A stretch of DNA of 64,000 nucleotides from Pseudomonadota bacterium. Lineage in GTDB: Bacteria; Pseudomonadota; Alphaproteobacteria; Geminicoccales; Geminicoccaceae. The notes below the pieces were generated by a model. The model had not been told where the DNA came from. It saw only the letters and a list, made by a program, of their open reading frames with translations, and did no database searches. Shown here piece by piece: positions 602 to 58,338 of the stretch. The translations under genes and the position numbers were made by a program. The stretch covers positions 1,436-65,435 of the forward strand of contig JAUQQO010000055.1 in the NCBI GenBank assembly GCA_030549795.1. The letters run 5' to 3'. How positions within the stretch are numbered: position 1 is the first letter of the stretch; each line of letters starts with the position of its first letter.

Positions 602-1549
602 ATGGCCGTCTCTAAGCGTTCTCTGCACGCTTTGCTCGGTCGCATGGACAACGACAATCTTCCCAGTCGTGAACAAGCGAGCGTCCTGTCGTTCCCGCTG
701 CGGCAACGGACGCTCGACCTCGACTATCCCAACCTCGCCACCCGCTTCGAGCCCGAAACCGGTATCTTGTGGGCGCGCATGAAGCATCGCGAGCGCGCAT
801 GCTATACGCCCGAGATCATGCGCGACATGCGCGACTTCCAGCTGCACTTGCGGGATCTTTATGCCGGCGCTTCGCTCGAGGAATGCCCGATCCGCTGGCT
901 CGTGTGGGCTTCAGATGCGCCAAGGGCCTGGAGCTTGGGCGGTGATCTGCAGACCTTCACGCGCCTCATTCGCGCCGGCGACGAAGCCGGCTTGCGGGCT
1001 TATGCCCATCTCGCGATCGACATTCTCTACGACAATCTCATCAATATGGATTTGCCACTGCTTTCGGTCGCCCTCATCACCGGTGATGCGATCGGAGGCG
1101 GCTTCGAAGCGATGCTCACCGACGACATCGTGATCGCCGAACGCGGGGCCAAGTTCGGCTTGCCGGAGATCCTCTTCAACCTGTTCCCCGGCATGGGAGC
1201 GTACAGCTTCCTCGAGCGCAGACTCGGCCCCAACCTCGCCCGCACGCTCATTACCGACGGTGTCACCCGCAGCGCCGACGAGATGAAGGAGCTCGGTCTC
1301 GTCGACATCGTCTGCGAGCCGGGCCGCGCCGAATCCGCGTTGCGCGCCTTCATCGCCGAGCAAGCGCCCCGCTTCCGCACCCTCAAGACGCTGAGCCAGG
1401 TGCGCCAGCGCGTCCATCCCGTGACCCGGCGCGAACTCTTAGACGTGGTCGATCTCTGGGTCGATCTCGCGATGCAGCTCTCGGATGCGGATCTGCGCCG
1501 GATGGATTGTCTCGCCCGGGTCCAAGAGCGCAAGCGCGCCGCACCTTAA
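602..1549 (+). CDS. rpfF: Crotonase-fold enzyme of the RpfF/DspI (DSF synthase) family, enoyl-CoA hydratase/isomerase superfamily
   Basis: Motifs GDAIGGGFEAML and GLPEILFNLFPGMGAYSFL carry the two crotonase catalytic Glu positions. The C-terminal WVDLAMQLSDADLRRMDCLARVQ closely matches what I remember of Xanthomonas RpfF. The track ORF starts at GTG 560; I prefer ATG 602 (MAVSKRS), preceded by ggagaagga. Stop is TAA at 1547-1549. Confidence 0.75.
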   Translation: MAVSKRSLHALLGRMDNDNLPSREQASVLSFPLRQRTLDLDYPNLATRFEPETGILWARMKHRERACYTPEIMRDMRDFQLHLRDLYAGASLEECPIRWLVWASDAPRAWSLGGDLQTFTRLIRAGDEAGLRAYAHLAIDILYDNLINMDLPLLSVALITGDAIGGGFEAMLTDDIVIAERGAKFGLPEILFNLFPGMGAYSFLERRLGPNLARTLITDGVTRSADEMKELGLVDIVCEPGRAESALRAFIAEQAPRFRTLKTLSQVRQRVHPVTRRELLDVVDLWVDLAMQLSDADLRRMDCLARVQERKRAAP

Positions 1550-2106
1550 GCGCGCTGCAGCGCCTCGAGCCACCGCTCACCCCTTCGATCGGCTGAACGC
1601 CAGGCGCCTATACCGCACGCGATCCGGGCGTGCGCTCGCGGGTATGGCACCGCTCTGGGTCAGCAGGCCAACCGTTGGCGCGCGGGCGGTCGGGTGAGGG
1701 GCGAAGTGGCGGCTTAAGACGAACACCACCGCCCCAGCTGTCGCCTCACCGCGCTGTCGAGCGCGCGACCCCCGCTGCAGGCGTGATAAGAGCGCAGGGA
1801 TGAGCGAAACTTCCGCCGGCTCGAGCCCGCGCTCGACTCTTAACGCATTGGCGCAGTCGCCTCAGCTTTGGCCGATCGAGGCGTGCGCTCTTCTGTGGTC
1901 CCAAAAACGACAGTGGCTTTGGGCAGAACCGTTCGGGCAGGACCGTTCGAGAGCGGTCCTGCGCATCCCCTAAGCTGAGCCCGCGCTCGCGCCGCCGGCT
2001 GAGGCTCACGGCGCGATGCTGGGGGGTTCTTTTCGTTCGGTGATGCGCGCACACTACGGCAGCTCGCGGCGGCCGGCATTGCGCGTGTAGGGTTTTTTTT
2101 TGGCTT

Positions 2107-4629
2107 TTAGGGGTGGCGCGAGGCGGCAGCGCGCTCGCTTAGATAATCGCGAAGGGCGGTTTCGAGTTTGGCGAGCTCCTCGTGCAAGCGCAAAAGCTCG
2201 GCGCGGCCGCGCATGAGGAGGGCTGCATCGTCGAGACCCCGCCAGGACAAACAGAGCTCGAACACGCCCACTCCACCCATGTGCGCTGCACTCGAGCGCA
2301 ATGCATGGGCATGCTGACGGAAGGCGTGGGCATCACCCGCGCGGAGTGCAGCCTGCATGCGCTCGAGGCTCTCGCGGCTGTCGGCGAGGAAGTCCTCGAC
2401 CAGTTCTGCAAAGAAACCCTGACCATCGTCGAGTTGCTCGAGCGCCTTGAGCCGGGTGGGATCGAGCACCCGACCATCCTCGTTTGCGTGGCGCGCCGGA
2501 GGAGGGGCCTGGCCCGCAGCCGGCTCCTGCAAGGCGGCGTTCAAAAGACGATCGATGGTGGACAAGAGCTCGGCGGTTTCGACCGGTTTGGTGAGATAGG
2601 CGGAAAAGCCGAGCTTGCGGCAGGTCTCGCGCGATTCCGGGGTCGCATCGGCGCTCAAGGCCACGATCGGCGGCAGCTCCGCGGGGTCGTTGAGAAAGCG
2701 CAACAGCTTGACGGCATCGGTGCCGCTCGTGCCGGGCATGCTCAAGTCCATCAGCACGAGGTCGAACCGCTCGCGCTCGAGCCATTCGAGGGCAGCTTGA
2801 CCATCGTCCGCCAACACGACGCGATGACCGGCCCGCTCCAAGATGGCTTTGATCACCCGCTGGTTGGTGCGGTTGTCCTCAGCGACCAGGATCCGTGCCG
2901 TCCGCTGGGCCTTGGGAAGGGAGGGTCGATCGGTCGACCAGCCCTCGGGTGCTGCAAGCGCCGCGCGCAAGCAGCGCCATAAGCTCTCTTGCGGGACATC
3001 GCGGGCGAGCATGACAAGCGCTGGCAGCTGCGAAGCGAGCGCAGGGGGGCCGAAGGCGATCACTTCAAGCGGATCCCGCACTGCGGCCAAAACCGCATTG
3101 AGCCGCTCGGCTTCGATCCGTTCGCTGTCAACCAAGAGCACCCGAGGCTTGGCTATGCGCTCGAGCGTTTGGGATAGGGCCGCAAGGCTGTGAACCAAAA
3201 CCGTATCGAGCCCCAAGGCGCGCACGCGCTCGGCAATCTCATCGGGCACGGCAAGGAGCACCGCAGTCCCGAACAGGCGCGCAGCCGTTCCCTCAACATC
3301 GTGCAGCGGCTCGAAAGGAGCCTCGATCCAGAACACCGAGCCGTGTCCCGGCTCGCTCACGACGCCGATTTTCCCACCCATGAGGGTCACGAGCTCGCGG
3401 GCAATCGCAAGTCCAAGTCCTGAGCCGCCGTAGAGGCGATGGATCGTATCGTCGGCCTGGGTGAACCGCTCGAAGATGGCCTTTTGCCGCTCCAGAGGGA
3501 TGCCGATGCCGGTGTCGCGCACTTCAAAGCGCAACCAGATGCGTCCTTTTTGTTCCAGAACCGGCCTCACGGCGAGGGTGACGCCGCCTGAATGGGTGAA
3601 CTTCACCGCATTGGCGAGCAGGTTGAGAAGGATCTGGTGGAGCGACTGGACGGCCCCTTTCAAACGCACAGGCGTGCGCGGATCGATCTCGAGCCGCAGG
3701 AAAAGGTCTTTCTCTTGCGCCTGCGGGCGGATGAGGGAGCGCAAGAGAGCGAGGCGGGCATCAAGCTCGAAGGGGATTTCTTCGACGGTAAAGCGCCCCT
3801 CTTCGAGCCGTGCGAGATCGAGGATCTCGTTAACGAGGGAAAGAAGCGTGCGCCCGGCGCTGCGGATGGTCGCGGTCATGCTCGCCTGTTCGGGATCGAG
3901 CCGGCTCGTGGCGAGCAGATCGGCCATGCCGATGATAGCGTTGAGCGGCGTGCGCAACTCATGGCTCATCATGGCAAGAAAGCGGCTCTTGACGCGGCTC
4001 GCTTCCTCGGCCCTTGCGATCGCGGCGTTGAGTTTGCCGATGAGCACCGAGCAATAGGCGGGCAAGACGACGAGGGCGAGCAAAAGGGCCACATCGAGCG
4101 CCGGCACGGTGCGCCATTCCGAGTTCCAGGCGATAACAAGGGCGAACAAGAGAAAGGAAGTCCCGGCAGCGGCGAAGAGATAGGGTTTGCCGAAGCGGAA
4201 CCCGTGGCCGAGGATCACCCAGAGCAGAATGGGGTAAAAGGGAGCGGTGGCGAAGCCGCCTACCACCATCATCGCGTTGAGGCCGACCGTGTCGACGAGC
4301 ATGCCGGCGATCCGCCGGGGCGGGCGCACGCGCGGATCGACGAGAATGTGCAAAAAGAGCAAAACCGCGAGGAGAAGACAAACTCCGCTGATGAGCAGGC
4401 CCATCGAGACGATATGGTCGCGATCGGGCAAGTCACTGGGCAGGAAAAATACATAGACGGCGATGAAGAGCGCAAAAAAGATTCTGATAATCGCTTGCTC
4501 GTGTTCGCTGTCCGCGCGCTGGCGCAGCCGTTGCCGCACCCAGCGGAGAACCAGCCGCACCGAGCCGGCCACAAGGCCACGCGCTCGACGCGACTGATTG
4601 CTGCTCTCGTCTCGCGCTGCGGTGGCCAC
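2107..4629 (-). CDS. Hybrid sensor histidine kinase, RpfC-like architecture: multi-pass membrane input, HisKA, HATPase_c, REC, HPt
   Basis: 840 aa. The N-terminus has several hydrophobic helices plus DSEHEQAIIRIFF and LLWVILGHGFRFG. H-box is SRFLAMMSHELRTPLNAIIG. The ATP-binding lid is GGSGLGLAIARELVTLMGG. Receiver is ILVAEDNRTNQ...DLVLMDLSMPGTSG. C-terminal HPt is HAHALRSSAAHMGG. The GTG start at 4629 lies 14 nt after the stop of the upstream regulator gene. Confidence 0.9.
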   Translation of the reverse strand: MATAARDESSNQSRRARGLVAGSVRLVLRWVRQRLRQRADSEHEQAIIRIFFALFIAVYVFFLPSDLPDRDHIVSMGLLISGVCLLLAVLLFLHILVDPRVRPPRRIAGMLVDTVGLNAMMVVGGFATAPFYPILLWVILGHGFRFGKPYLFAAAGTSFLLFALVIAWNSEWRTVPALDVALLLALVVLPAYCSVLIGKLNAAIARAEEASRVKSRFLAMMSHELRTPLNAIIGMADLLATSRLDPEQASMTATIRSAGRTLLSLVNEILDLARLEEGRFTVEEIPFELDARLALLRSLIRPQAQEKDLFLRLEIDPRTPVRLKGAVQSLHQILLNLLANAVKFTHSGGVTLAVRPVLEQKGRIWLRFEVRDTGIGIPLERQKAIFERFTQADDTIHRLYGGSGLGLAIARELVTLMGGKIGVVSEPGHGSVFWIEAPFEPLHDVEGTAARLFGTAVLLAVPDEIAERVRALGLDTVLVHSLAALSQTLERIAKPRVLLVDSERIEAERLNAVLAAVRDPLEVIAFGPPALASQLPALVMLARDVPQESLWRCLRAALAAPEGWSTDRPSLPKAQRTARILVAEDNRTNQRVIKAILERAGHRVVLADDGQAALEWLERERFDLVLMDLSMPGTSGTDAVKLLRFLNDPAELPPIVALSADATPESRETCRKLGFSAYLTKPVETAELLSTIDRLLNAALQEPAAGQAPPPARHANEDGRVLDPTRLKALEQLDDGQGFFAELVEDFLADSRESLERMQAALRAGDAHAFRQHAHALRSSAAHMGGVGVFELCLSWRGLDDAALLMRGRAELLRLHEELAKLETALRDYLSERAAASRHP

Positions 4630-4643
4630 GGCTCGGCTTTCGA

Positions 4644-6770
4644 TTAGAACCAGCGGTTGTCGAGCATCCGCTGTTCGAACTCGCCGGCGCTAAGAGGCGG
4701 GCTCAGGAAGTCGCCCTGCACTTCATCGCAACCGAATTCCTCGAGGCGGGCGAGCTGGCCCGCGGTTTCGACCCCTTCGGCGATGACGGTAAGCCCGAGG
4801 CTGTGGCCGAGATTGATGATCGCGCGCACGATGACCTCGTCGTTGACGCTGTGTTCGAGGTTCTGCACGAAGGATTGGTCGATCTTCAGTCGACGGACGG
4901 GCAGGCGCTTGACGTAGGCGAGGGAAGAATATCCGGTGCCGAAATCGTCGAGCGACAAAGACACGCCCAGTTGATGGAGGTAGCGCAGGCTCGCAAGCGC
5001 GGTTTGGCTGTGCTCGATGATAGCATTCTCGGTCAGCTCGACGTCCAGCTGATGGGGCGAAAGGCCGGTTTCTTTGAGCACGCGTTCGATCAACAGTTCG
5101 ACCCCGCGCTCGCGGAACTGCACGGGCGACAAATTGACGGAGAGCTGCAACGGTCCAAGGCCGCGATCCAACCAGCGACGGTGCTGGGCGCAGGCGGTCT
5201 GCAGGACCCAGGCGGTCAACGGCGCAATAAGGCCGATTTCCTCGGCCATGCGGATGAACTCGCCCGGCCGCAACAGACCACGGTGGGGATGGTTCCAGCG
5301 CACGAGCGCTTCTACCCCGACGATCCGACGCGTCTTGAGCTCCATTTGTGGTTGATAGTAGACCAGGAACTGGTCGGCGGCCAGGGCTTGGCGCAGCTCG
5401 CGCTCGAGGGTAACAGCCCGGCGCGCGGCGAGGTTCATCTCGCGGGCGAAGAAGCGGTAGGCATCGCGGCCCGAGGCTTTCGCCCGGTACATCGCAAGAT
5501 CGGCGTTCTTAAGGAGCGTCTCCGCGGTACGACCGTCGGTCGGAAAGAGGGTGACACCGATGCTCGCCGAGAGATGGATCTCTTGGCCGTCGGCGTGGAA
5601 CGGTTCGGCGAAGGCCTCGCCCAGGCGGCGGCAGAGTTCGGCGGCATCGTCGGGGCGACTGATCTCGGTCTGAAGGATCACGAATTCGTCACTTCGCAGG
5701 CGCGCGATGCGGTCGGTCTCGCGCAACCGGGACGAGAGCCGGCGTGCAACCGCGCGCAGCAATTTGTCCCCCGTTTCTTCCCCGAACGCCTCGTTTACGC
5801 CCTTGAAGCGGTCGAGGTCGAGGTGCAACAGGGCGAACAGCTCGTTGCGTCGGCGTGCGCGCGCGATGGTCTGTTCGAGCCGCTCGCGGAACCAGGGCAA
5901 TGTCTCAAGGCCGGTTAGGGGATCGTGGCGGGCGGCCACACCCTCCTGTGTCTCGGCGACCTTGAGCTCGGAGATGTCGAGCGCCACCGTGACCACGCGT
6001 TCGGGCCCGCCGGGTCGCTCGGCGAGCAAGCCCTTGGTCACGGCAAGCCAGCGCAGACCCGTGGCCCCGAGCATGGTATCGAACCGAGGCACGAGCAGCG
6101 GCTGGCCGCTTTCCCGAACTTTGGCATCCAATACGCCGTGGCGGGTGGCGAACTCTTCCCCATGCACTTCGATGAGCGGACGACCGAGGATTTGGGCGCG
6201 CTCGACCCCGAAGAGGGCCTCATAGGCGCGGTTGACGAAGAGGATCCGGCCGCGCTCATCGGTGGTGCTGATCGCCACCGGCAAGCGGTCGAGTAGGACG
6301 GACACAGCATCCTCGATTTGGGCCAAAGCGCCGCTTCGCTCTTGAAGCGCCATCTCGAGCTCGGCCGCGCGGCGGGCCAACATCTGACGCTGGCGCCTGA
6401 GGGATAAGAGATTGCGCGCGCGAGCGCGGAACTCCAAATGGTCGACGGGGCTTAAGAGAAAATCGGTAGCGCCGGCTTCGAGCGCTCGATAACGGAACTC
6501 TTTGTCCTCATAGACGGTGATCACGACGATGGGGACGTCGGCGAGCCGATCATGCGCGCGGATTTTGCCGATCAGCGTCGCTCCGTCCATCTCCGGCATG
6601 TTGAAATCGGTGATGACGAGGTCGGGGGAAAGATCGCTCGTCATCCGCGTGAGCGCTTCGCTTGGGCTCGCGAAGGCGTGCACCTGGATCCCCTCCTCGA
6701 CCGAGCGCGCGAGCCGGGTCAAGATGTTCCGACCGGTCACGCGGTCGTCGATCACGACGATCGTGGCCAT
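4644..6770 (-). CDS. Response regulator REC-PAS-GGDEF(degenerate)-EAL; predicted c-di-GMP phosphodiesterase
   Basis: 708 aa. REC: IVVIDD...DLVITDFNMPEMDG. A PAS-like segment follows (RLPVAISTTDERGRILFVNRAYEALFG). The GGDEF domain has RSDEF in place of GGDEF, with RETD five residues upstream. EAL-domain motifs are intact: VGVEALVRW, ELTEN, DDFGTGYSSL, KIDQSFV, AEGVET, QGDF. Confidence 0.9.
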   Translation of the reverse strand: MATIVVIDDRVTGRNILTRLARSVEEGIQVHAFASPSEALTRMTSDLSPDLVITDFNMPEMDGATLIGKIRAHDRLADVPIVVITVYEDKEFRYRALEAGATDFLLSPVDHLEFRARARNLLSLRRQRQMLARRAAELEMALQERSGALAQIEDAVSVLLDRLPVAISTTDERGRILFVNRAYEALFGVERAQILGRPLIEVHGEEFATRHGVLDAKVRESGQPLLVPRFDTMLGATGLRWLAVTKGLLAERPGGPERVVTVALDISELKVAETQEGVAARHDPLTGLETLPWFRERLEQTIARARRRNELFALLHLDLDRFKGVNEAFGEETGDKLLRAVARRLSSRLRETDRIARLRSDEFVILQTEISRPDDAAELCRRLGEAFAEPFHADGQEIHLSASIGVTLFPTDGRTAETLLKNADLAMYRAKASGRDAYRFFAREMNLAARRAVTLERELRQALAADQFLVYYQPQMELKTRRIVGVEALVRWNHPHRGLLRPGEFIRMAEEIGLIAPLTAWVLQTACAQHRRWLDRGLGPLQLSVNLSPVQFRERGVELLIERVLKETGLSPHQLDVELTENAIIEHSQTALASLRYLHQLGVSLSLDDFGTGYSSLAYVKRLPVRRLKIDQSFVQNLEHSVNDEVIVRAIINLGHSLGLTVIAEGVETAGQLARLEEFGCDEVQGDFLSPPLSAGEFEQRMLDNRWF

Positions 6771-7107: not shown

Positions 7108-7596
7108 ATGAGCCGTGAGCATCCGAGCCGTCCGGTCGTCGGTGTCGGCGCAGTGATCTTGCGCGACGATCGGGTCCTCTTGGTGCGCAGGGGGCGTCCG
7201 CCGCGTGCAGGCCAGTGGTCGCTTCCCGGTGGCGCGCAGAAGCTCGGCGAAACCGTCGAGGAAGCGGTGCGCCGTGAGATCCGTGAAGAAACCGGACTCG
7301 AGCTTGCGCGCATCGAACTGTTGGCGGTGGTCGATTCGATCCACCGCGATCCCGACGGGCGGATACGCTACCACTACACCTTGATCGATGTTCTCGGCGA
7401 GGCCGCACCGGGAGAGGTGCGGCCCGGCGATGATGCGCAAGAGGTGGCGTGGTTCCCCTTGTCCGAGCTCGAGCGTCTCGACTTATGGGACGAGACGCTG
7501 CGGGTGATCCGGCTCGCCAGCGAGCGCCGCAGCGGGGCTCAGTCCTCTTTGCCGTCGCCCGCGAGCGCTCGGGCGAGGTTGCAGAGTGCCTCTTGA
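7108..7596 (+). CDS. NUDIX hydrolase
   Basis: Nudix box GGAQKLGETVEEAVRREIREETGLE. ATG at 7108. The 3' end overlaps the convergent XRE gene by 58 nt. Confidence 0.85.
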   Translation: MSREHPSRPVVGVGAVILRDDRVLLVRRGRPPRAGQWSLPGGAQKLGETVEEAVRREIREETGLELARIELLAVVDSIHRDPDGRIRYHYTLIDVLGEAAPGEVRPGDDAQEVAWFPLSELERLDLWDETLRVIRLASERRSGAQSSLPSPASARARLQSAS

Positions 7597-7964
7597 TGCT
7601 TGCGGTTGGGGATGTTGGCGAAATTGCGGGCGAGCTCGAGGAGCATGCGCTGCTGCGGCATGAGCTCGGTCGGCTTCGACTTGAGCTTGTTCTCGGGGTC
7701 GGCGTCTTCGAAGAAGTAACCGATGTCGACACCGAGCGCTTGCGCGATCTGGTAGAGCCGGCCAGCCGAGATTCGGTTGATGCCGGTCTCGTATTTATGC
7801 GCTTGCTGATAGGTTACTCCGATGAGCTCGGCCATCTGCTGTTGGGTGAGGCCGAGCATGATCCGCCGCTGGCGGATGCGCATGCTCACATAGTGATCGA
7901 TGTCGAGAGCGCGACTACGCCCGCCGGCGCCGCGGCCGACGACCTTGCTCGCGAGCTGGTTCAT
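7539..7964 (-). CDS. XRE-family helix-turn-helix transcriptional regulator
   Basis: HTH_3-like segment RIRQRRIMLGLTQQQMAELIGVTYQQAHKYETGINRISAGRLYQIAQALGV. The track ORF extends to 8063; I prefer ATG 7964 (MNQLASK), which has GGAG upstream. Confidence 0.8.
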   Translation of the reverse strand: MNQLASKVVGRGAGGRSRALDIDHYVSMRIRQRRIMLGLTQQQMAELIGVTYQQAHKYETGINRISAGRLYQIAQALGVDIGYFFEDADPENKLKSKPTELMPQQRMLLELARNFANIPNRKHQEALCNLARALAGDGKED

Positions 7965-8078
7965 GAGGCGTGGACTCCGCAGGCTAGGGGTAGGTTCGTG
8001 GACCCGACTCGTCACCGATCGGATTTCGCTAAAATACAACCCTTTTTTTAGATAGCTAGCCACGAAGAGAATTTCTCA

Positions 8079-8702
8079 TCAACCCGTAGAGGCCTGCTCG
8101 TTCTCCTCCGCGGGCAGCTGGAACGCCTCGGGCCACACCGCGCCGAGCACCGCCTTGACCGCGACGAGCGTCACCCCGGCGAGCACGGGAGCGTTCCAGG
8201 CGGCAAGATCGAAGAGATCGGCGCGCGCGCTCGGCAACAGCCGCCGCAACAGCTGCCGACCGTCGGCGAGCTGGGCCAGCACGGGGCGACCGAGGAGCTC
8301 TGCGGGCGGGCTCTCAAGGCTCGCCACGAGCGCGATCTGCCCGGGCGCAAAGACCGGCAGCATGGTCGTGTCCTCGATCCGCCAAGCCTCGAGCTGGTCC
8401 TCTTTGAGCGCGAGCGGACCGAGCTCGAGCCGCTCGGCAAGGCCCCCGGGCGCGATGCGCCCGGCAAGCGCAACGGCTGTGCGCCGCGGGTGCCGGCCGA
8501 ACAAGAGATACTCGGCGGAGGTGTCGAGGGCGCGCGCGAGCCGCTCGAGCACCGCCGGCGACGGAATGTACTCATCGCGCTCATAAGGGCCGATCGCCGT
8601 CTGGTGCCGTCCGATCAGCCGCGCGAGCTCGGCTTGCTTGAGGCCCTTGGCGAGCCGCAACCAGCGCAACCGCTGACCGAAAGACGATCCCGAGCCGATC
8701 AC
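8079..8702 (-). CDS. XRE-family HTH regulator with a C-terminal S24 (LexA/CI)-like domain
   Basis: N-terminal HTH: FGQRLRWLRLAKGLKQAELARLIGRHQTAIGPYERDEYIPSPAVLERLARAL. The C-terminal region RIEDTTMLPVFAPGQIALV...GRQLLRRLL resembles the GDSMxP...KRL layout of S24 peptidase domains. GTG start at 8702. Confidence 0.7.
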   Translation of the reverse strand: MIGSGSSFGQRLRWLRLAKGLKQAELARLIGRHQTAIGPYERDEYIPSPAVLERLARALDTSAEYLLFGRHPRRTAVALAGRIAPGGLAERLELGPLALKEDQLEAWRIEDTTMLPVFAPGQIALVASLESPPAELLGRPVLAQLADGRQLLRRLLPSARADLFDLAAWNAPVLAGVTLVAVKAVLGAVWPEAFQLPAEENEQASTG

Positions 8703-8765
8703 CCGACCACATCCCTTATGGGTTAGCTTCGAGCTTTGCTCTTAGAGCAAAAGAGCATAGCACGT

Positions 8766-11132
8766 CTACCCTGAGTCGCCCGGCAGGAGCCGCTGATGGC
8801 GCAGAGGAACGTGCGGCGAGGGCTGCGGCAGGAGCCGGATCAACCGGCCTTCCGCCCACAGGGTGGTGAGATCGCGGTAGTGCCGTGAGAGCGGATGGCC
8901 GACTTGCCCGGTCGCCGCGACCACCCACACCCCCGGCTCCGCCAGATCGACGACCAGCCGCAAACCCGGACCGTGGTGCGCCGGGAACGGACCGCCGATC
9001 CCAAGCGCGCGATAGGCGGCAACGGCGAGCGTCGTCGCATCGCCCCCGATCGGCACCCGCAGCGAGACGAACGCCCCCAACAGGGGCAACTCGCCCAACA
9101 GGCGGTGGGGCATCACGGCGGGATGCTCGTTTCCCCAGCGCCAGCGCCGCCAGTCGTCGCCGAGCCGCTCGCTGAGCGCGGCGAAGGCTTCGCCAAAGGC
9201 GGCGGCCACCATCTGCGCGCAGCTCTCTCCAGCAGCGGTGCGGACATCATCGCACCAGGGCGCGCGCGTCACTTCGGCGAGGAGCTCGGGACGCGCGGCA
9301 AGGAGTGGGCGGGCGAGCGCGCCGAGCTCGTCTTCGAGCAGGCGTCGTGCGAGGGCCTCCTGCCAAGCCGCGAACAGAAGAGGCTCCGGACGATCGGGGG
9401 CCATGGTCGCATCCCACCCGGCAAGCGCCTCAGCCGCCGCATCGCCCTGCGCGAGCGGCCGCGCTGCGTTCAACAGCGGCACGAGCACAGGCAGAAGCGT
9501 ACGCGCCGCAGCCGAGACGAGATCGAGCTGGATCGTGCGGGCCGCTTCGCCATCGAGCCCAGGATGCGCCTTTAGGAGTTCGTGCAGGCGCCGGCCGCGC
9601 AGCGCCGATTCGGTCAAACGCGGGTGCAGAGAATAACGCTCGGGTGCCTCCCAGGGCTCATTGGCGTTGGCAAGAAATCCCTCCGTTGGGTCGCTTCGGC
9701 GGGGCAGCGAATCGCTCGTGCGAAAGCCGAGCCAATCGGCTTCACCCGTCCAGCTGCGGGGAAGAACGTGGCTCTTGGGACTTCGCCGCAGCGGAACGCG
9801 TCCCGCTACCGCAAGCCCGATGCGGCCGTGACGATCCGCGATCGCCACGTTCTGCACCGGAGAGGCGAAATCGGTAAGGGCAGCAAAGAGCTCCTCGCGG
9901 TCGCGGGCCCGCGCGATCGCAAAGCCGGCGGCGAGTGTTCGATCGTCTCGTCTTGAGCCGATCCACTGGAACGCCAACTCTTCGCCGGGAGCGAGTAATC
10001 CCCGCGCACCCGGCAGAAGGTCGCTTACGATCGGACCGAAGCGCGTTTCGCGCACGCTCAGTTGCTCGGGCTTGCGGCCGCGCACCGCGATCGTCTCGAT
10101 CCGGTAGCGAAACGGCTCGCTTCCCTCCGGCACGAGATAACGGTCGGGATGGCGCGGGTCGATGCGGATCCGCACAAGGTCTTCGCTATCGGCACCGGTC
10201 GTCGTAAGACCCCAAGCGACGTTCTGGTTGCGCCCGATGATCACCGCCGGCAGGCCGGGAATAGTGCCGCCCATGAGCACGCGATCATGAACTTCGAGAA
10301 CCGCGAGATACCACGGCCCCGGAACCTGAAAGGGCAGATGGGGATCGCTTGCGAGCATTGGCACACCTGAGCGGGATCGCGCGCCTGCGACCACGAAGAC
10401 GTTGGAGCCGAGGCCGCTTGTGACCGTTTCGGCCGAGCCAAGACGCGGCAGCGCGCCAAGGCCCTGCGGCTGACCGTCGGGCACCGGCTCGAGCAACGCA
10501 TCATCCTCAGCTGCGATCAGCTCGGCGAGCCGGTCAGGGGGGAGGATGTGCGCGAGGTGCGCCAGCAAGAGCTCGCGCTGCCAGGCGATTGCGAGCTCAA
10601 GAGCCATCAGCCGATGGACGAGAAGGATATCGGCCGGCCGCCAGGGTTCGAGCGTGACGCCGAAGAGCAACAAATCCGGCGGAAGCGGGCGGGCGCGCGC
10701 AAAGGCCGCGCTTACGCCCTCCGCATAGGCCTCAAGCAGCGCCCGCTCATCCGGGGAATAGGCGGCAAGACCCTCTTCGGCGATGCGCGAAAGGTCGAGG
10801 GTGCGAAAGAAGCGGTCGAGCGGCAGGGCGCGCTCGCCAACCCGCTCGGCGAGCTGCCCTCGGCCGATCCGACGCATGAGTTCGAGCTGGGCGGTGCGAT
10901 CGGTGCCGTGGACGAAACCCAGCGCGCGCCAGAGGTCGCGCTCGCTTTGGGCGCGGATGTAGGGGACGGCGAAGGAATCGCGTGCGATCGCAACCGCACC
11001 GTCAAGACCGGCGAGAACAACATCACCCTCGTGCTCGGGTAAAGAAGCCCAAAGCAGCGCGGCGATCCCTCCCGCGGCGAGCACGAAAAGGAAGAGGAGT
11101 AACAAGAGCGAGCGCAAAAGCGCGCGGCGCAT
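8766..11132 (-). CDS. Penicillin acylase / acyl-homoserine-lactone acylase family Ntn-hydrolase (peptidase S45)
   Basis: 788 aa. Hydrophobic N-terminal signal/anchor LLRSLLLLLFLFVLAAGGIAALLWA. GLGSNVFVVAGARSRSGVPMLASDPHL carries the GSN processing/nucleophile context typical of this family. Length is typical of the family. Confidence 0.8.
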   Translation of the reverse strand: MRRALLRSLLLLLFLFVLAAGGIAALLWASLPEHEGDVVLAGLDGAVAIARDSFAVPYIRAQSERDLWRALGFVHGTDRTAQLELMRRIGRGQLAERVGERALPLDRFFRTLDLSRIAEEGLAAYSPDERALLEAYAEGVSAAFARARPLPPDLLLFGVTLEPWRPADILLVHRLMALELAIAWQRELLLAHLAHILPPDRLAELIAAEDDALLEPVPDGQPQGLGALPRLGSAETVTSGLGSNVFVVAGARSRSGVPMLASDPHLPFQVPGPWYLAVLEVHDRVLMGGTIPGLPAVIIGRNQNVAWGLTTTGADSEDLVRIRIDPRHPDRYLVPEGSEPFRYRIETIAVRGRKPEQLSVRETRFGPIVSDLLPGARGLLAPGEELAFQWIGSRRDDRTLAAGFAIARARDREELFAALTDFASPVQNVAIADRHGRIGLAVAGRVPLRRSPKSHVLPRSWTGEADWLGFRTSDSLPRRSDPTEGFLANANEPWEAPERYSLHPRLTESALRGRRLHELLKAHPGLDGEAARTIQLDLVSAAARTLLPVLVPLLNAARPLAQGDAAAEALAGWDATMAPDRPEPLLFAAWQEALARRLLEDELGALARPLLAARPELLAEVTRAPWCDDVRTAAGESCAQMVAAAFGEAFAALSERLGDDWRRWRWGNEHPAVMPHRLLGELPLLGAFVSLRVPIGGDATTLAVAAYRALGIGGPFPAHHGPGLRLVVDLAEPGVWVVAATGQVGHPLSRHYRDLTTLWAEGRLIRLLPQPSPHVPLRHQRLLPGDSG

Positions 11133-11736
11133 GGTTCACCTCGATGGCTCGCCGTCGTTCGGGCTTCGCCGCCATCGAGAGCAGCCTTCGAAGGATTGTC
11201 GAGCCCCGCCCGCTGGGCCCGAGCTCGCAAGCGGCGAGCCAGCGACCCGGCGCTTTATCCCCACCCGCTTAAGGCAGGCGATCACGCCTCGCCGGCTTTC
11301 CTTTCGGCTCGGGCATCCCGCACTGCCAAAAGCCATAAGAGCAATCCGGCAGGTACCGCAAAAGCCGGCTTACTGCGCCGAGAAATAAGGAACACACCCA
11401 AGAGCCGACCCGCGGCGCTTCGCCCGTGATTGCGGTGCGATGCGGGGGGACCCGCAAACAGCAAGCCGATGCATGACCGCGGTACGCGTTTTGAGGGCTT
11501 TTGCACCCGAAGGGCTCGGCCATCCTGCGGATGACTGTTTGCGGGGGTGCGCGGCTCCAAGCGCTCTGTTCCCTTTGGGCGCGTGCAGGGGCACACGAGC
11601 ATCGCTGGCCCCATGGCGCTGTTTTCGTCTCGGCTCGTGCGCCGAGGCGGCGAAGACCGCGGGGAACGACTGGATCTTCGCGAACCTGGGGCGCGGGACA
11701 GGGCTATGAAGGCGATGCCTCTGGTTTGCTTGCCTT

Positions 11737-12377: not shown

Positions 12378-12824
12378 ATGGCGAAAAGCTGGCACATCGT
12401 TTGTCCCGCCTGCGCGGCGGTCAACCGCGTCCCCGACGATCGACCGCCCGAACGCGCCAAATGCGGCCGCTGTCGGGCCCAGCTGTTCGCGGGACGACCC
12501 ATCGAGCTCGACCCGGCAACCTTCGAGGTCCACATCACGCGCTCCGAGATCCCGGTGCTCGTGGATTTCTGGGCGCCCTGGTGCGGCCCCTGCCGAGCGA
12601 TGGCACCTGTCCTCGAACAGGCGGCCCAACGTCTCGAACCTACAGTGCGGGTCGCGAAGGTGAACATCGACGCCGCTGAGGACATCGCGGCGCGCTTTGG
12701 GATCACCGCCGTGCCGACGCTCGTGCTCTTCGCCAAGGGGCGCGAGATCGCCCGCAGAAGCGGTGCGATGCCGCTCGCTGCGCTGCTCGCATGGCTCAAG
12801 AGCGCGCTCGAGGAGCACACGTGA
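12378..12824 (+). CDS. trxC: Thioredoxin 2 type thioredoxin with N-terminal zinc-finger extension
   Basis: N-terminal CPACAAVNRV...CGRC followed by the active site WAPWCGPC. ATG at 12378 is preceded by GGAGGA. Confidence 0.85.
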   Translation: MAKSWHIVCPACAAVNRVPDDRPPERAKCGRCRAQLFAGRPIELDPATFEVHITRSEIPVLVDFWAPWCGPCRAMAPVLEQAAQRLEPTVRVAKVNIDAAEDIAARFGITAVPTLVLFAKGREIARRSGAMPLAALLAWLKSALEEHT

Positions 12825-13546
12825 AGTCAGCTCCGCGACTTGCGGAGCCCAAAGGGCTCGCAGAGCTCTTGCGCGGCGTCGACATCTTAAGCGGGCTCGA
12901 CGAACGCGGCTTGGCGGCGCTTCTTCCGCTCGTGCGCATCCGGCACGTCGATGCCGGCCAGATCATCGTCGGCCGATCGGATCCGGGGCGAGAGGTCTAT
13001 TTTGTCCTCTCGGGCGCGGTCCGTGTCACCACCTTCGCCGAGAACGGGCGCGAAGTGGCCTTTCGCGATCTTCACGCAGGGGCTTCCTTCGGCGAGATCG
13101 CTGCCATCGACGGCGAGCCGCGCTCTGCGGATGTGTTGGCGCTGTGCGATACGCTTCTCGGCGTCTTGAGCGCCGCCGATTTTTGGGCGCTGTTGCGGCG
13201 CGAGCCGGCGGTCAACGAGGCGGTTCTCTTGAAACTCGCGCGGCTCGTGCGGGCGCTTTCGCAGCGTATCCACGACTTCGCGTCACCTGTGCCAGCGCGC
13301 ATTTGCGCTGAGCTGTTGCGCCTTGCGCGCGCGCGCGAAACCGAGGACGGCCTGTTGCGCATCGCGCCCGTGCCCCGCCATGCCGATCTTGCCGCCAAAC
13401 TCGTCACCCACCGCGAGGCGGTCTCACGGGTGATCAGCGAACTGGTGCGCCGCGGCGTGCTCGCCAAGCGACGGGGCGAGCTCATCGTGCAGGACCCCCG
13501 AGCCCTTGCGGCCTATGCCGCCAACAGCGAGCGCCTGATCGACTAG
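12821..13546 (+). CDS. Crp/Fnr family transcriptional regulator
   Basis: cNMP-binding-like N-terminal domain (FVLSGAVRVT...FGEIAAIDGEPRSADV) and C-terminal HTH (THREAVSRVISELVRRGVL). The GTG at 12821 overlaps the trxC stop (GTGA) and has GAGGAG upstream. The track ORF starts at 12791. Confidence 0.8.
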   Translation: MKSAPRLAEPKGLAELLRGVDILSGLDERGLAALLPLVRIRHVDAGQIIVGRSDPGREVYFVLSGAVRVTTFAENGREVAFRDLHAGASFGEIAAIDGEPRSADVLALCDTLLGVLSAADFWALLRREPAVNEAVLLKLARLVRALSQRIHDFASPVPARICAELLRLARARETEDGLLRIAPVPRHADLAAKLVTHREAVSRVISELVRRGVLAKRRGELIVQDPRALAAYAANSERLID

Positions 13547-13549
13547 AGC

Positions 13550-14539
13550 TCAGCTGCGCGGCGGATAACAGCCGGCTACCCTGCCGGTGAGGGTCACAAG
13601 CGCGTGCACGGTGGCGATGGTCGGGGTCGGCACCTCCACGAGCCGGGCGAGCTCGAGCACGGCGGTGACCAGGGCGTCGATCTCCATCGGACGGCCGCGC
13701 TCGAGATCCTGCAGCATCGAGGTCTTGTGCGCGCCCACTGCGGCTGCGCCGGCGATGCGCTTGTCAACGTCGATGGCAAAGCGCACGCCGAGCTTTTCCG
13801 CCACCTCTTGGGCTTCGAGCATCATCGCGCGGGCCACGGCCCGCGTTCCGGGATCGGCGCAAATGACATCGAGTGTGGCACGGGTGAGCGCGCTGATCGG
13901 GTTGAAGGCGAGATTGCCCCACAGCTTGACCCAGATCTCGTCGCGGATCTTGGGTCGGATGGGGGCTTTGAGCCCGGCTGCCATAAGCGCCCTTGCCAGC
14001 CGTTCGACGCGCGCGCTCTTCGAGCCATCGGGCTCGCCCAAGGAGAAGCGGTCGCCCTCGACGAGCCGCACCACCCCGGGTTCGTCGACCTCGGCGGCCG
14101 GATAGACGACGCAGCCGATCGCGCGCTCCGGGCGGAGTCGATCCCAGATCACCCCGCCGGGATCGACGCTCTCGAGCCGCCGATCCCGCCACGGTCCCTC
14201 AAGACCGAAGAAATACCACCAGGGAACGCCGTTGATGGCCCATACGATCGCCGTCTCGGGACCGAGCAGCGATTCGATCGCCGGCACCGCCGCCGGGACC
14301 TGATGCGCCTTTAAGGTGACGATGACATAGTCCTGGGGACCGAGTTCGCCCGCATCGGCAGTCGCTTTCGGGTGGGCGAGCAAGCGCTGCTCGCCCTCGA
14401 TCAACACGAGGCCACGGGAACGGATCGCCTCGAGGTGCGCCCCACGGGCGACGAGCGAGACCTCGTTTTCTTGGGTGCTCGCGAGCTTGGCGGCGAGGTA
14501 ACCGCCGATGGCTCCGGCGCCGAAAACACAGATCCGCAT
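13550..14539 (-). CDS. 2-dehydropantoate 2-reductase (ApbA/PanE) family oxidoreductase
   Basis: Begins MRICVFGAGAIGGYLAAKLA (Rossmann GxGxxG). The track ORF (to 14767) carries an Arg-rich extension that overlaps the upstream gene. The ATG at 14539 overlaps that gene's stop codon by 1 nt. Confidence 0.8.
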   Translation of the reverse strand: MRICVFGAGAIGGYLAAKLASTQENEVSLVARGAHLEAIRSRGLVLIEGEQRLLAHPKATADAGELGPQDYVIVTLKAHQVPAAVPAIESLLGPETAIVWAINGVPWWYFFGLEGPWRDRRLESVDPGGVIWDRLRPERAIGCVVYPAAEVDEPGVVRLVEGDRFSLGEPDGSKSARVERLARALMAAGLKAPIRPKIRDEIWVKLWGNLAFNPISALTRATLDVICADPGTRAVARAMMLEAQEVAEKLGVRFAIDVDKRIAGAAAVGAHKTSMLQDLERGRPMEIDALVTAVLELARLVEVPTPTIATVHALVTLTGRVAGCYPPRS

Positions 14540-16068
14540 CAGGCAAGACCCAGACGCTGCGCGAGACCGATCCGCTGCAACTTGCCCGTCGGCCCCTTCG
14601 GAATTTCCGGTACGATCACGATCTTGCGGGGAACTTTGAAGTCCGCGAGGTGCTTGGCGGCGAAGGCGCGGATCTCCTGCTCGGTGGCGGTGGCGCCTTC
14701 GCGCAGCACAACCGCAGCGCCCACTTCTTCGCCGAGCTTCTCGTGCGGGATGGCGAAGGTCACGCACTGCGCTACCGCCGGATGGTCCATGAGCACTTCG
14801 TCGACCTCGAGCGGGCTCACCTTCTCACCGCCGCGGTTGATGATCTCTTTGAGCCGCCCGGTGATGCGCAAGTAACCGTCGGCATCGAAGCGGCCCTGAT
14901 CACCGGTGCGGAACCAGCGCCGACCCTCGGCTTCGAAGAAGGCCTTGGCGTTGGCCTCGGGGTTGGCCTCGTAGCCGCGGGTCACATTCGGTCCCGAGAT
15001 GACCACCTCGCCTTCCGCTTCGCCTTCTAAGAACACGGGCGCTGAGGGATCGGCGATCCGCACGAGCGGGCCCGCCGGCAATCCCACCGAACCCGGCTTG
15101 CGCGGTCTGGGCGGCAAGGGGTTGCTCGTCATCTGGTGGGCTGCTTCGGTCATCCCGTAGCTTTCGATTACGGGACAACGGAAGGTCTCTTCGAGCGCGC
15201 GCATGACTTGAGGCGGCAGCGACGCCGAGCTCGAGCGGATCAAGCGCAGCGCGGTTCGGGCTAGGATCTCGGGGTTGCGCTCGGCACGGGCGAGGATCGC
15301 CTGGTGCATCGTCGGCACCGCCGTGTACCAGTTCGCCCGCGATTCCTCGAGCCAGGCAAAAAAGCGCAGCGCGTTGAAACCCGGCGTGCAGAACACCGAA
15401 CCGCCGGCAGAAAGCGAAGCGAGGACCGCCGCCACGAGCCCGTGGATGTGGAAGAGCGGCATGATGTTGAGGCAGCGGTCGGCGGGCTCGAGCGCGAGCG
15501 TGGTCTTGATGTGCCGTGCCGAGGCGACGAGGTTGGCATGGCTCAGCGGCACGAGTTTGGGCCGACTCGTGGTGCCCGAGGTGTGCAAGAAAAGGGCCGT
15601 GGCCTCAGGCGAAGGCGCGGGCTCGAGCGCTCCTGCTTCACCCAAGCGGAAATAGCCGGCGCTCGCCCCGGTCGGCACCTCTAGGCGCAAAAGCGTAAGG
15701 CCGCGCCGTTCGGCGACCCTCACCGCAGGGCCGCGTTCCTCGGCCGTGACCAGCACCGCTTTCGCCTTGAGGTCCTCCAAGTAGAAGTCGAGCTCTTCTT
15801 CACGATAGGCAGGATTGAGCGGTGCGGTGGCCGCTGCACAGGCGACGGCCAAAAAGGAGGTCGCTGCCTCGGGACCGTTCGGCAGCACGATCGCTACCCG
15901 ATCCTCGGGGCCGATCCCGCGCGCCCGCAGGGCAGCTGTGGTCTCGCACACGAGCCGGCGCAGCTCACCAAAGGAAAGAGGAGGCCGGTCGGGCGCCAGG
16001 ATCGCCGGATCGTCCGCGCGGCCAACGCCTAACAGCTCGAAGACGGTCGTAAAGCCATCCGCCGCCAT
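14539..16068 (-). CDS. AMP-forming acyl-CoA synthetase/ligase (resembles the oxalate-CoA ligase subgroup)
   Basis: AMP-binding motif LHTSGTTSRPKLVPLSH. Also TGDQGRFDADGYLRITGRLKEIINRGGEKVSP. LNPAYREEELDFYLEDLKAKAVL resembles plant/yeast oxalyl-CoA synthetases as I remember them. GGAGG RBS before the ATG at 16068. Confidence 0.8.
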   Translation of the reverse strand: MAADGFTTVFELLGVGRADDPAILAPDRPPLSFGELRRLVCETTAALRARGIGPEDRVAIVLPNGPEAATSFLAVACAAATAPLNPAYREEELDFYLEDLKAKAVLVTAEERGPAVRVAERRGLTLLRLEVPTGASAGYFRLGEAGALEPAPSPEATALFLHTSGTTSRPKLVPLSHANLVASARHIKTTLALEPADRCLNIMPLFHIHGLVAAVLASLSAGGSVFCTPGFNALRFFAWLEESRANWYTAVPTMHQAILARAERNPEILARTALRLIRSSSASLPPQVMRALEETFRCPVIESYGMTEAAHQMTSNPLPPRPRKPGSVGLPAGPLVRIADPSAPVFLEGEAEGEVVISGPNVTRGYEANPEANAKAFFEAEGRRWFRTGDQGRFDADGYLRITGRLKEIINRGGEKVSPLEVDEVLMDHPAVAQCVTFAIPHEKLGEEVGAAVVLREGATATEQEIRAFAAKHLADFKVPRKIVIVPEIPKGPTGKLQRIGLAQRLGLA

Positions 16069-57579: not shown

Positions 57580-58338
57580 TCAGGCGCGACGGCGTACCGT
57601 AGAGGGGCCCTCCGCTTCCGCGCGGCGCGCGCGGCCGCGGCCGGCGCGCTTGGCCGCATAAAGAGCCGCGTCCGCGCGCGAGAAGAGGCCGTCGAGATCA
57701 AGACCGGGCTCGAGAACGGCAAGCCCGGCGCTCACGCTCAACGGTACCCGCTCCCCACCGCGCTCGAAGTCCAACAAGCGGACGGCCGAGACGATGCGCT
57801 CGGCCACGAGCGCCGCTTCGTCGGGCGCCGCCCCGTCGAGCAGAACGGCGAACTCTTCCCCGCCGATACGGCCGACGACATCGGAGCGCCGGGTCGCCGC
57901 GAGCAGGGTGCGCGCGATCAGCCGTAGCGCCTCGTCTCCCGCGGCATGTCCATAAGAGTCGTTGATGCTCTTGAAGTGGTCGGCGTCCAACACGAGGAGC
58001 GTGAGCGGACGGGAACTGCGCCGCGCGCGTTGGATCGCGGCTTCCGCGGCCTCAAAGAAGGCCCGGCGGTTGAGAAGCCCGGTCATCGAATCGCGCCGCG
58101 CCAATTCCTCGAGCTCGAGCTTGGCGCGCGCAAGGCGCCGCAGGAGCTCCAAAAGGTAGGCCACCATGGGGCCGGCCATCACGATCGGCGCCGCACCGGC
58201 GAAGGCGAGCCAAAAGGGATCGATCGGATCCTCGCGCAGATGGGCCACGGTAGCGAACAGCCCCATCGAGGCGAGCGAGGAGAGCCCGCTCGCGATGAGC
58301 GTTCCGAGCACCACATCGCGTCCTCGACGGACGAGCAT
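57580..58338 (-). CDS. Membrane-anchored diguanylate cyclase (GGDEF domain)
   Basis: Two or more N-terminal hydrophobic helices, then DSMTGLLNRRAF, LLVLDADHFKSINDSYGH and RIGGEEFAVLL (intact GGEEF, with RRSD at the I-site position). ATG at 58338; the track TTG start is at 58410. Confidence 0.88.
   Translation of the reverse strand: MLVRRGRDVVLGTLIASGLSSLASMGLFATVAHLREDPIDPFWLAFAGAAPIVMAGPMVAYLLELLRRLARAKLELEELARRDSMTGLLNRRAFFEAAEAAIQRARRSSRPLTLLVLDADHFKSINDSYGHAAGDEALRLIARTLLAATRRSDVVGRIGGEEFAVLLDGAAPDEAALVAERIVSAVRLLDFERGGERVPLSVSAGLAVLEPGLDLDGLFSRADAALYAAKRAGRGRARRAEAEGPSTVRRRA

Follow-up and report, generated by a model that had tools for sequence, protein, structure and literature searches.

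A putative diffusible signal factor module that pairs an RpfC-type kinase with a REC-PAS-GGDEF-EAL regulator in Geminicoccaceae and other Alphaproteobacteria

Signalling by diffusible signal factor (DSF)-family cis-2-unsaturated fatty acids has been worked out almost entirely in the Xanthomonadales (RpfC/RpfG) and in Burkholderia and the Enterobacteriaceae (RpfR), and RpfCG and RpfR were listed as the two core DSF perception pathways in a 2015 review (PMC4504480). A 64,000-nucleotide stretch of a Geminicoccaceae genome (contig JAUQQO010000055.1; hereafter the window) carries at 602-6770 a crotonase gene that faces the genes of a hybrid histidine kinase and a REC-PAS-GGDEF-EAL response regulator. 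Does this locus encode a DSF-type system and, if so, according to which of the two wirings? The analysis presented here suggests that it probably constitutes a quorum-sensing module in which a DSF-family signal, made by the crotonase, acts through the kinase on an EAL phosphodiesterase, an arrangement that follows neither wiring completely.

The three genes are arranged as in a compact operon and a convergent neighbour. The crotonase gene, encoding a putative DSF-family signal synthase of 315 amino acids (aa), lies on the forward strand (602..1549). Convergent with it, on the reverse strand, are the genes of the RpfC-type hybrid histidine kinase (2107..4629) and of the 708-aa response regulator (4644..6770), the latter being upstream of and co-directional with the former. 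The first-pass annotation had proposed the same three open reading frames (ORFs) at these positions, and every string that it quoted from them is found in the translations. For the kinase, two start codons come into consideration. With GTG 4629 the protein has 840 aa and the gene starts 14 nt from the regulator stop codon (4644), the distance reported previously; with GTG 4572, the start chosen by metagenome gene callers, it has 821 aa and the distance becomes 71 nt. The second start leaves a pre-membrane sensor of 26 residues, nearer to the 22 residues that RpfC has in Xanthomonas campestris pv. campestris (Xcc). From the regulator stop to the sensor motif of the kinase there are 129 nt, compared with a median of 87 nt in related loci. 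Crotonase and kinase genes converge with their stop codons separated by a spacer of 557 nt (1550-2106), compared with a median of 27 nt in 60 related loci. This spacer has no Rfam match, and its 102-aa ORF (1746-2054) is implausible in composition. Throughout the long intergenic regions, no structured RNA was detected (Rfam, E ≤ 0.1), and promoter and terminator scans remained at background level.

The nearest named relatives of the crotonase belong to the Geminicoccaceae (84-60% identity), a family of the order Geminicoccales within the Alphaproteobacteria, in agreement with the alphaproteobacterial origin suspected from the sequence. An identical locus is present on several Logan metagenome contigs. 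A one-genome-per-species scan detected at least 585 loci with relatives of the crotonase, and all figures given below for alpha-type loci rest on the best 80 of them. Neighbouring genes were classed by queries with domains of the window proteins and of those encoded at the Xcc locus, and the assignments were then confirmed with Pfam. A control set was formed by those 80 metagenome loci that are nearest to Xcc RpfF. Because the three-gene layout recurs in 36 other species-level genomes, it is not a product of chance.

The assignment of the crotonase is the starting point of the argument. Its Pfam domain is ECH_1, and it contains GGGFEA, LPEILFNLFPGMGAYSF and WVDLAMQL...LRRMDCLARVQ. When it was compared with all PDB sequences using phmmer, the best four matches were 7zq7, a crotonase-family protein (5.7e-51), 3m6m, which is Xcc RpfF (9.4e-47), 5fus, which is Bcam0581 of Burkholderia cenocepacia (2.3e-46), and 6dgn, deposited as 'RpfF' (2.6e-46). 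The next match, an ordinary enoyl-CoA hydratase, followed at 8.8e-15, and DspI of Pseudomonas aeruginosa (5wyb) at 1e-14. The protein likewise exceeds the cut-off of NCBIfam model NF006452/PRK08788 (312 bits vs. 177), on which Xcc RpfF and Bcam0581, a synthase of the Burkholderia signal BDSF, score 427 and 393 bits, respectively, as controls. Xcc reference proteins were taken from a metagenome contig (L087) that encodes an RpfF 100% identical to that of Xcc and carries rpfB, rpfC, rpfH, and rpfG as well. In an alignment with this RpfF, the catalytic residues E141 and E161 and the acyl-pocket residues G85, G137, G138, M170, W258, and L276 are the same in the crotonase, while L136 is replaced by Ile (residue list from PMC9864630); this alignment had been proposed in the first-pass annotation as a check of its RpfF assignment. 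Identity amounts to 35% with Xcc RpfF and 34% with Bcam0581, and the latter two share 38%. In both the PDB and the NCBIfam searches, the crotonase groups with characterised DSF synthases and not with beta-oxidation hydratases or DspI, which bears out the RpfF-like identity first proposed. In a midpoint-rooted neighbour-joining (NJ) tree of crotonases, the alpha set and the Xanthomonadales set stand on opposite sides, and the window protein falls into a sub-clade of 18, all of whose resolved loci have an EAL partner.

The kinase resembles RpfC from its first residues onwards. Its N-terminal ~200 residues have no Pfam match, and direct comparison with Xcc RpfC revealed a multi-pass membrane input domain of the RpfC type (aa 1-205; 4015..4629, reverse strand as for all domains below) with 34% identity over 177 aa (E 1e-30). 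Over the whole protein, identity with Xcc RpfC is 39% across 439 aa (E 2e-92). In Xcc, DSF binds to the 22-residue N-terminal sensor of RpfC, for which R15, D17, S18, E19, and Q22 are essential (Cai et al. 2017, PMC5391125). All five residues are kept in the window kinase, where the sensor motif RADSEHEQ (aa 39-46; 4492..4515) directly precedes the first transmembrane helix and matches R15-A-D17-S18-E19-H-A-Q22 of Xcc RpfC. Across 60 alpha-type and 62 Xanthomonadales-type kinases this motif is conserved, as is LWVILGHGFRFG, which the window kinase contains along with DSEHEQA; the input-domain signature WV..G.G.R.G is conserved in it too. The relationship of the input domain to that of RpfC, which had been proposed from such strings, is thereby upheld. 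A word-indexed search with the kinase N-terminus returned five fragments, one of them named RpfC by the Joint Genome Institute (JGI).

The cytoplasmic part begins with a HisKA (DHp) domain, whose phospho-accepting His lies in MSHELRTPLN (aa 214-278; 3796..3990; Pfam PF00512, 73.9 bits), followed by a HATPase_c catalytic (CA) domain (aa 328-440; 3310..3648; PF02518, 98.7 bits). A canonical receiver with its Asp in LMDLSMPG and its Lys in LTKPV (aa 580-692; 2554..2892; PF00072, 86.5 bits) matches the receiver of Xcc RpfC in structure 3m6m_D (3e-24), and the protein ends with an HPt domain containing HALRSSAAHMG (aa 742-823; 2161..2406; PF01627, 31.6 bits). The order of input, HisKA, HATPase, REC, and HPt is therefore that of RpfC, as the first-pass annotation stated; what it overlooked is an insert of ~130 aa between HATPase and REC. 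Linkers between CA and REC have a median length of 144 aa in the 60 alpha-type kinases and of 31 aa in 63 Xanthomonadales kinases. With hhalign, the profile of the insert matches the profile of the kinases' own REC with a probability of 95.6% (E 1.3e-8), and the insert (2920..3267) is, on this profile evidence, a degenerate receiver that Xanthomonadales RpfC does not have. We consequently class the protein, from these alignments, as an RpfC-type kinase whose input domain is a homologue of the RpfC input and which has one extra pseudo-receiver.

The regulator departs from the Xcc system in its output. Pfam confirmed the REC-PAS-GGDEF-EAL architecture first described for it and matched neither HD nor HD_5 in it; similarity to HD-GYP was detected nowhere in the window. 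The receiver (aa 4-117; 6420..6761; Pfam Response_reg) belongs to the RpfG lineage: together with the following helix it is 34% identical to Xcc RpfG over 169 aa (E 8e-26), and the Xcc RpfG receiver, when compared with the window, finds the regulator receiver as its best match (4e-23), ahead of the kinase REC (4e-10). On a wider scale, alpha-type partner receivers show a mean identity of 38-44% to those of HD-GYP-type partners, compared with 25-35% for matches to the kinases' own REC. Residues D8, D9, D55, and T85 are kept and are invariant in the orthologues. The conserved receiver Lys (CheY K109; FLVKPI in RpfG), on the other hand, is replaced by Ser107 (FLLSPV; window 6450-6452), a feature missed previously, as was the RSDEF motif described below. 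At this position, Ser or Thr is found in 47 of 48 alpha-type partner receivers (related loci L007-L086), whereas all 59 HD-GYP partners have Lys; the kinases' own receivers carry Lys in the motifs tallied.

The receiver is followed by a PAS_4 domain (aa 160-270; 5961..6293; PF08448, 47.3 bits), which is present in 37 of 37 orthologues. No PDB match to it is better than E 5.7e-4, and RpfR is not among the matches at E ≤ 0.1 although its PAS domain has been deposited, PAS sequences being too divergent to exclude a similar pocket. Next comes a degenerate GGDEF domain (aa 280-436; 5463..5933; PF00990), whose RxxD motif (RETD) has the canonical spacing of an I-site. Its signature reads RSDEF in the window and in the closest Geminicoccaceae relatives, and an intact GGDEF is found in 24 of the 37 aligned proteins. 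The C-terminal EAL domain (aa 457-692; 4695..5402; PF00563, 259.7 bits) has all catalytic motifs, namely EALxR, N, ELTE (ExxE), DDFGTGYSS, KID (KxD), EGVE, and QG, which are invariant in the 37 orthologues, and the best PDB matches to this part are the GGDEF-EAL entries 5m3c and 4rnh. With intact EAL motifs beside a degenerate GGDEF motif, phosphodiesterase activity is to be expected, with the GGDEF domain probably having a regulatory function in this genome. Taken together, these comparisons describe the regulator as an RpfG-lineage receiver with a swapped output, PAS-GGDEF-EAL standing in for HD-GYP.

The same layout was found in related genomes, so that the conservation of the neighbourhood, suggested earlier as a check, was confirmed. 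Both kinase and partner were resolved in 52 of the best 80 loci, and the order of a crotonase gene convergent with a kinase gene that is preceded by a regulator gene occurs in 52 related genomic loci. The partner is a REC-PAS_4-GGDEF-EAL protein in 36 of the 52, all from Alphaproteobacteria according to the record titles except one titled 'Mycobacterium sp. KBS0706'. These 36 loci come from Geminicoccaceae, Inquilinus, Rhizobium spp., Pinisolibacter, Propylenella, Aureimonas, Pseudovibrio, Stappia, Agaricicola, Afifellaceae, and Acetobacteraceae/Plastoroseomonas. REC-PAS with an EAL output is thus the dominant arrangement across several alphaproteobacterial orders. Nine loci (L033, L034, L046, L056, L061, L073, L080, L083, and L084; Stellaceae, Kiloniellales, and others) have a second kinase, REC-PAS-HisKA-HATPase, as partner, two have REC-PAS without a further domain (L068, Crenalkalicoccus; L086, Roseomonas aerilata), and five, from gamma- and betaproteobacterial metagenome-assembled genomes, have REC-HD-GYP. 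Receivers with EAL and with kinase outputs are 56% similar between the groups and 57% and 66% similar within them; because similarity between the groups is about as high as within, the conserved partner unit is REC-PAS, with interchangeable outputs. In the control set, all 54 resolved Xanthomonadales-type partners are REC-HD-GYP, and where a locus extends far enough upstream of rpfF, an RpfB-type ligase gene is in most cases found there. The crotonase stands alone in about six loci.

Some loci deviate in other respects. In Inquilinus-type loci, kinase and regulator are separated by one or two additional ORFs (L020, 11737-13454; L022, 11686-13678; L027, 11438-11986; L031, 4142-5053), which encode an RpfC-type input and HisKA but no ATPase and so are RpfH-like with a DHp domain added. 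The locus titled 'Mycobacterium sp. KBS0706' (L020) shares its organisation, these ORFs included, with Inquilinus loci L022 and L031, and its title looks mislabelled or contaminated. In Geminicoccus roseus DSM 18922 (L167), a MASE1 hybrid kinase is encoded upstream, in place of the regulator. The RpfC genes of loci L091-L101 have a doubled input domain and appear to represent the rpf-1 variant of Stenotrophomonas maltophilia.

How, then, would the module work? Family membership and catalytic residues suggest that 3-hydroxyacyl-acyl carrier protein is converted by the RpfF-family crotonase into a diffusible 2-enoic acid. This signal would be detected by the short N-terminal sensor and the membrane input of the RpfC-type kinase, to which the five retained DSF-sensing residues point. 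The kinase, in which the necessary DHp, REC, and HPt domains are present, would run a His-Asp-His relay and act, via the receiver, on the co-operonic REC-PAS-GGDEF-EAL protein, which takes the genomic and evolutionary place of RpfG. Activation would switch on the EAL domain and lead to hydrolysis of cyclic di-GMP (c-di-GMP). The net logic would be that of RpfC/RpfG, with high signal resulting in low c-di-GMP, through another class of phosphodiesterase and with a PAS domain between receiver and output. This scheme builds on what is known of RpfF/RpfC/RpfG (PMC4504480, PMC5391125) and of PdeK/PdeR (PMC6637768). We consider the chain as a whole to be probable, if some way from assured; its weakest link is phosphotransfer from the kinase to the receiver.

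Several observations weigh against this chain. The crotonase remains far below the cut-off of NF053515, the equivalog model for 'diffusible signal factor synthase RpfF' (186 bits vs. 550), which Xcc RpfF passes. As the proven BDSF synthase Bcam0581 fails as well with a nearly equal score (184 bits), we read this failure as indicating a synthase that is not of the Xanthomonadales type rather than a protein that is not a DSF synthase. None of the 80 alpha-type loci has an adjacent RpfB-type ligase gene, and in G. roseus the crotonase and an RpfC-like kinase (8001-11624) are found without an adjacent REC-PAS-GGDEF-EAL gene. The GGDEF motif is intact in many orthologues outside the Geminicoccaceae, so there the regulator could be bifunctional. 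Most serious is the receiver, which in nearly all orthologues is devoid of the conserved Lys. A receiver without one of the five catalytic residues counts, on a recent definition, as a pseudo-receiver, and pseudo-receivers retaining the Asp may still be phosphorylated, less efficiently (bioRxiv 10.1101/2025.06.23.661182). Formally, the regulator receiver is such a pseudo-receiver, and phosphotransfer to it may be weak or absent. The phosphorelay into an EAL phosphodiesterase that the first-pass annotation envisaged thus retains its relay domains and its intact EAL motifs, but the Lys-less receiver makes the step from kinase to regulator less secure than had been assumed.

This weakness opens the way to a reading in which the module is of the DSF type and the regulator escapes canonical Asp phosphorylation: the Lys-less receiver would be a docking or dimerisation module, or a slow phosphate sink, and the activating input would be a PAS ligand, possibly the fatty acid itself. 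In favour of this are the replacement of Lys by Ser or Thr in 47 of 48 alpha-type partners, set against Lys in the kinases' own REC and in 59 of 59 HD-GYP partners, the pseudo-receiver status that goes with the loss of a catalytic residue, and the conservation of REC-PAS_4 as a core whatever the output. Moreover, DSF-family acids are bound by the PAS domains of RpfR and RpfS, that of RpfS being a PAS_4 (PMC4504480, PMC6361424). However, the invariance of D8, D9, D55, and T85 is hard to explain without phosphorylation chemistry, a substitution at the Lys position need not abolish phosphorylation, and this receiver is the only obvious target of a kinase with a full REC-HPt relay. The PAS domain, moreover, has no specific relative among solved PAS domains, and that of RpfR is absent from the matches at E ≤ 0.1. 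We therefore hold this reading to be unlikely. Doubt may also be directed at the signal. The module could make or sense something other than a classical DSF-family acid, be it another acyl product or fatty acids of host or environmental origin, and would then not be engaged in strict quorum sensing. Identities of ~35% to Xcc RpfF and 34% to Bcam0581, the position of the crotonase in the half of the midpoint-rooted NJ tree separate from the Xanthomonadales set, Ile instead of Leu at pocket residue 136, and the missing RpfB turnover gene next to it all fit this idea. Yet Xcc RpfF and Bcam0581 both make cis-2-enoic acids at a mutual identity of 38% (PMC4504480), the other catalytic and pocket residues are identical to those of Xcc RpfF, and the kinase retains the motif by which the Xcc sensor binds DSF, which leaves a non-classical signal distinctly improbable.

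A further explanation would make the crotonase an ordinary hydratase of fatty-acid or CoA metabolism that happens to lie beside an unrelated two-component system. The Pfam assignment as such is generic (ECH_1/ECH_2), and an AMP-binding ligase and other metabolic genes are located within 15 kb. Nevertheless, the E-values obtained with DSF synthases surpass those of every hydratase by more than 30 orders of magnitude, and convergent pairing of the crotonase with an RpfC-type kinase is observed in at least 60 of the best 80 loci and in all complete Xanthomonadales loci. By the PDB ranking, this conserved pairing, and the NCBIfam controls, the explanation is effectively refuted, and we attach hardly any probability to it. 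We thus retain the DSF-type module acting through kinase and EAL phosphodiesterase as the preferred reading. A bolder variant can be put forward tentatively, as a conjecture that we hold to be unlikely: the locus would represent a third DSF signalling architecture, found in Alphaproteobacteria, in which the Lys-less REC-PAS partner is a coincidence detector that needs both the RpfC-type kinase and a PAS-bound cue, possibly an intracellular fatty acid, and drives interchangeable outputs (EAL, a second histidine kinase, or none), while the kinase pseudo-receiver contributes regulation of its own. In that case the whole receiver lineage would have in common a mechanism of non-canonical phosphorylation or docking.

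The presence of DSF-like genes in these bacteria is not new, as automated JGI annotation already names relatives of the crotonase 'DSF synthase' and one relative of the kinase 'RpfC'. What appears to be new here is the wiring, the lineage of Lys-less partner receivers, the REC-PAS core with interchangeable outputs, and the pseudo-receiver of the kinase. Full-text literature searches, with incomplete coverage, returned no prior description of these features or of an RpfC-type kinase with a REC-PAS-GGDEF-EAL partner. A third wiring of DSF signalling, which would be the norm in Alphaproteobacteria, is indicated by the window locus together with at least 36 similar genomes at species level. Its carriers include Inquilinus limosus, isolated from cystic fibrosis, and marine symbionts, besides Acetobacteraceae/Roseomonas, and since several of them are cultured type strains, the predictions made here are directly testable. 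The loci also amount to a natural domain swap, in which one sensor and one receiver lineage are combined with HD-GYP, PAS-GGDEF-EAL, PAS-HisKA-HATPase, or no output. Finally, a large and conserved receiver family that keeps the phospho-Asp pocket without the catalytic Lys bears on the question of how pseudo-receivers function.

Other genes of the window were surveyed as well. Divergent from the regulator, a NUDIX hydrolase gene is found (7108-7596, forward strand), which seven related loci (L007, L008, L010, L013, L019, L036, and L070) have in the vicinity of the module as well. Two XRE-type helix-turn-helix (HTH) regulators, encoded at 7539-8063 and 8079-8702 (both reverse strand), adjoin the gene of a 788-aa Ntn hydrolase of the penicillin-acylase family (8766-11132, reverse strand), which also occurs in L019 and L070. 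A role of this hydrolase as an acyl-homoserine lactone (AHL) acylase in quorum quenching was considered and rejected, its best PDB match being D-succinylase (1e-48) and the match to PvdQ being weaker and partial (4e-18). A Crp/FNR-family regulator (cNMP_binding and HTH_Crp_2; 12791-13546, forward strand) is encoded 6 kb from the regulator gene; we do not regard it as a Clp-type c-di-GMP effector, since its best PDB matches are generic Crp/Fnr proteins and Clp is not among the 60 matches listed. Similarly, the product of the AMP-binding acyl-CoA ligase-like gene at 14539-16068 (reverse strand), 8 kb away, was rejected as an RpfB: it is 28% identical to Xcc RpfB, which amounts to generic family similarity. 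A separate GGDEF-domain protein of 276 aa is encoded at 57580-58410 (reverse strand).

Individual parts of the proposed module have counterparts in known systems. Activation of a REC-GGDEF-EAL phosphodiesterase by a kinase already has a precedent in X. oryzae, where the REC-GGDEF-EAL protein PdeR becomes active as a phosphodiesterase when triggered by its cognate histidine kinase PdeK (PMC6637768). PdeR and likewise RavR, the partner of RavS in X. campestris, resemble the window regulator in combining REC with GGDEF-EAL, and shared architecture is all that we claim for them; their kinases, in contrast to the one described here, are not of the RpfC type and are not linked to an rpfF gene. For the cytoplasmic part of the window kinase, the best PDB match is ShkA of Caulobacter crescentus (6qrj; DHp-CA-pseudoREC-REC), aligned in a single stretch over CA, pseudo-receiver, and REC (E 4e-63). 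ShkA, however, has no membrane input and is activated by binding of c-di-GMP at Y338, R324, and R344, which correspond to Met, a gap, and Pro in the window kinase in an alignment of low confidence; the linker motif is TDR in the window kinase and DDR in ShkA. Similar control of the window kinase by c-di-GMP would fit its architecture but is not claimed, because the residues that contact c-di-GMP in ShkA are not conserved. An RpfC-like input kinase that responds to DSF-family signals outside the xanthomonads is known in PA1396 of P. aeruginosa, compared here by its description in a review (PMC4504480), which does not assign it an RpfF-family synthase or an EAL regulator as a partner.

At its N-terminus, RpfR has an FI domain for the binding of RpfF; a fatty-acid-binding PAS domain comes next, and no kinase is needed (PMC6361424). 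The RpfF/RpfR systems of B. cenocepacia and Cronobacter and the window locus have in common an RpfF-family synthase gene convergent with the gene of a PAS-GGDEF-EAL protein whose EAL domain degrades c-di-GMP or, in the window, is predicted to do so, and Bcam0581 and the window crotonase both fail NF053515 at near-equal scores and pass NF006452. Unlike RpfR, the window regulator starts with a receiver, not an FI domain, and the gene of an RpfC-type kinase lies between the two genes. An RpfR-like PAS was considered for the regulator and found no sequence support among PDB matches at E ≤ 0.1. Given the absence of an FI domain and of any match to the RpfR PAS at E ≤ 0.1, the regulator is not a relative of RpfR, and the merger of two signalling logics proposed in the first-pass annotation can be upheld as a functional analogy and not as common descent with RpfR. 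The Xcc system differs from the window locus in its HD-GYP output, where we find PAS-GGDEF(degenerate)-EAL; the window locus, for its part, has a Lys-less partner receiver, an extra kinase pseudo-receiver, and a synthase under the RpfF equivalog cut-off, and has neither rpfB nor rpfH adjacent. It nevertheless shares with Xcc RpfF/RpfC/RpfG the gene order and orientation (rpfF convergent with rpfC, and rpfG upstream of rpfC), the catalytic and pocket residues of the synthase (with Ile for L136), a homologous 177-aa kinase input with its DSF-sensing residues, and, in its regulator as in RpfG, a homologous receiver and linker that lead to a c-di-GMP phosphodiesterase output, here a predicted one.

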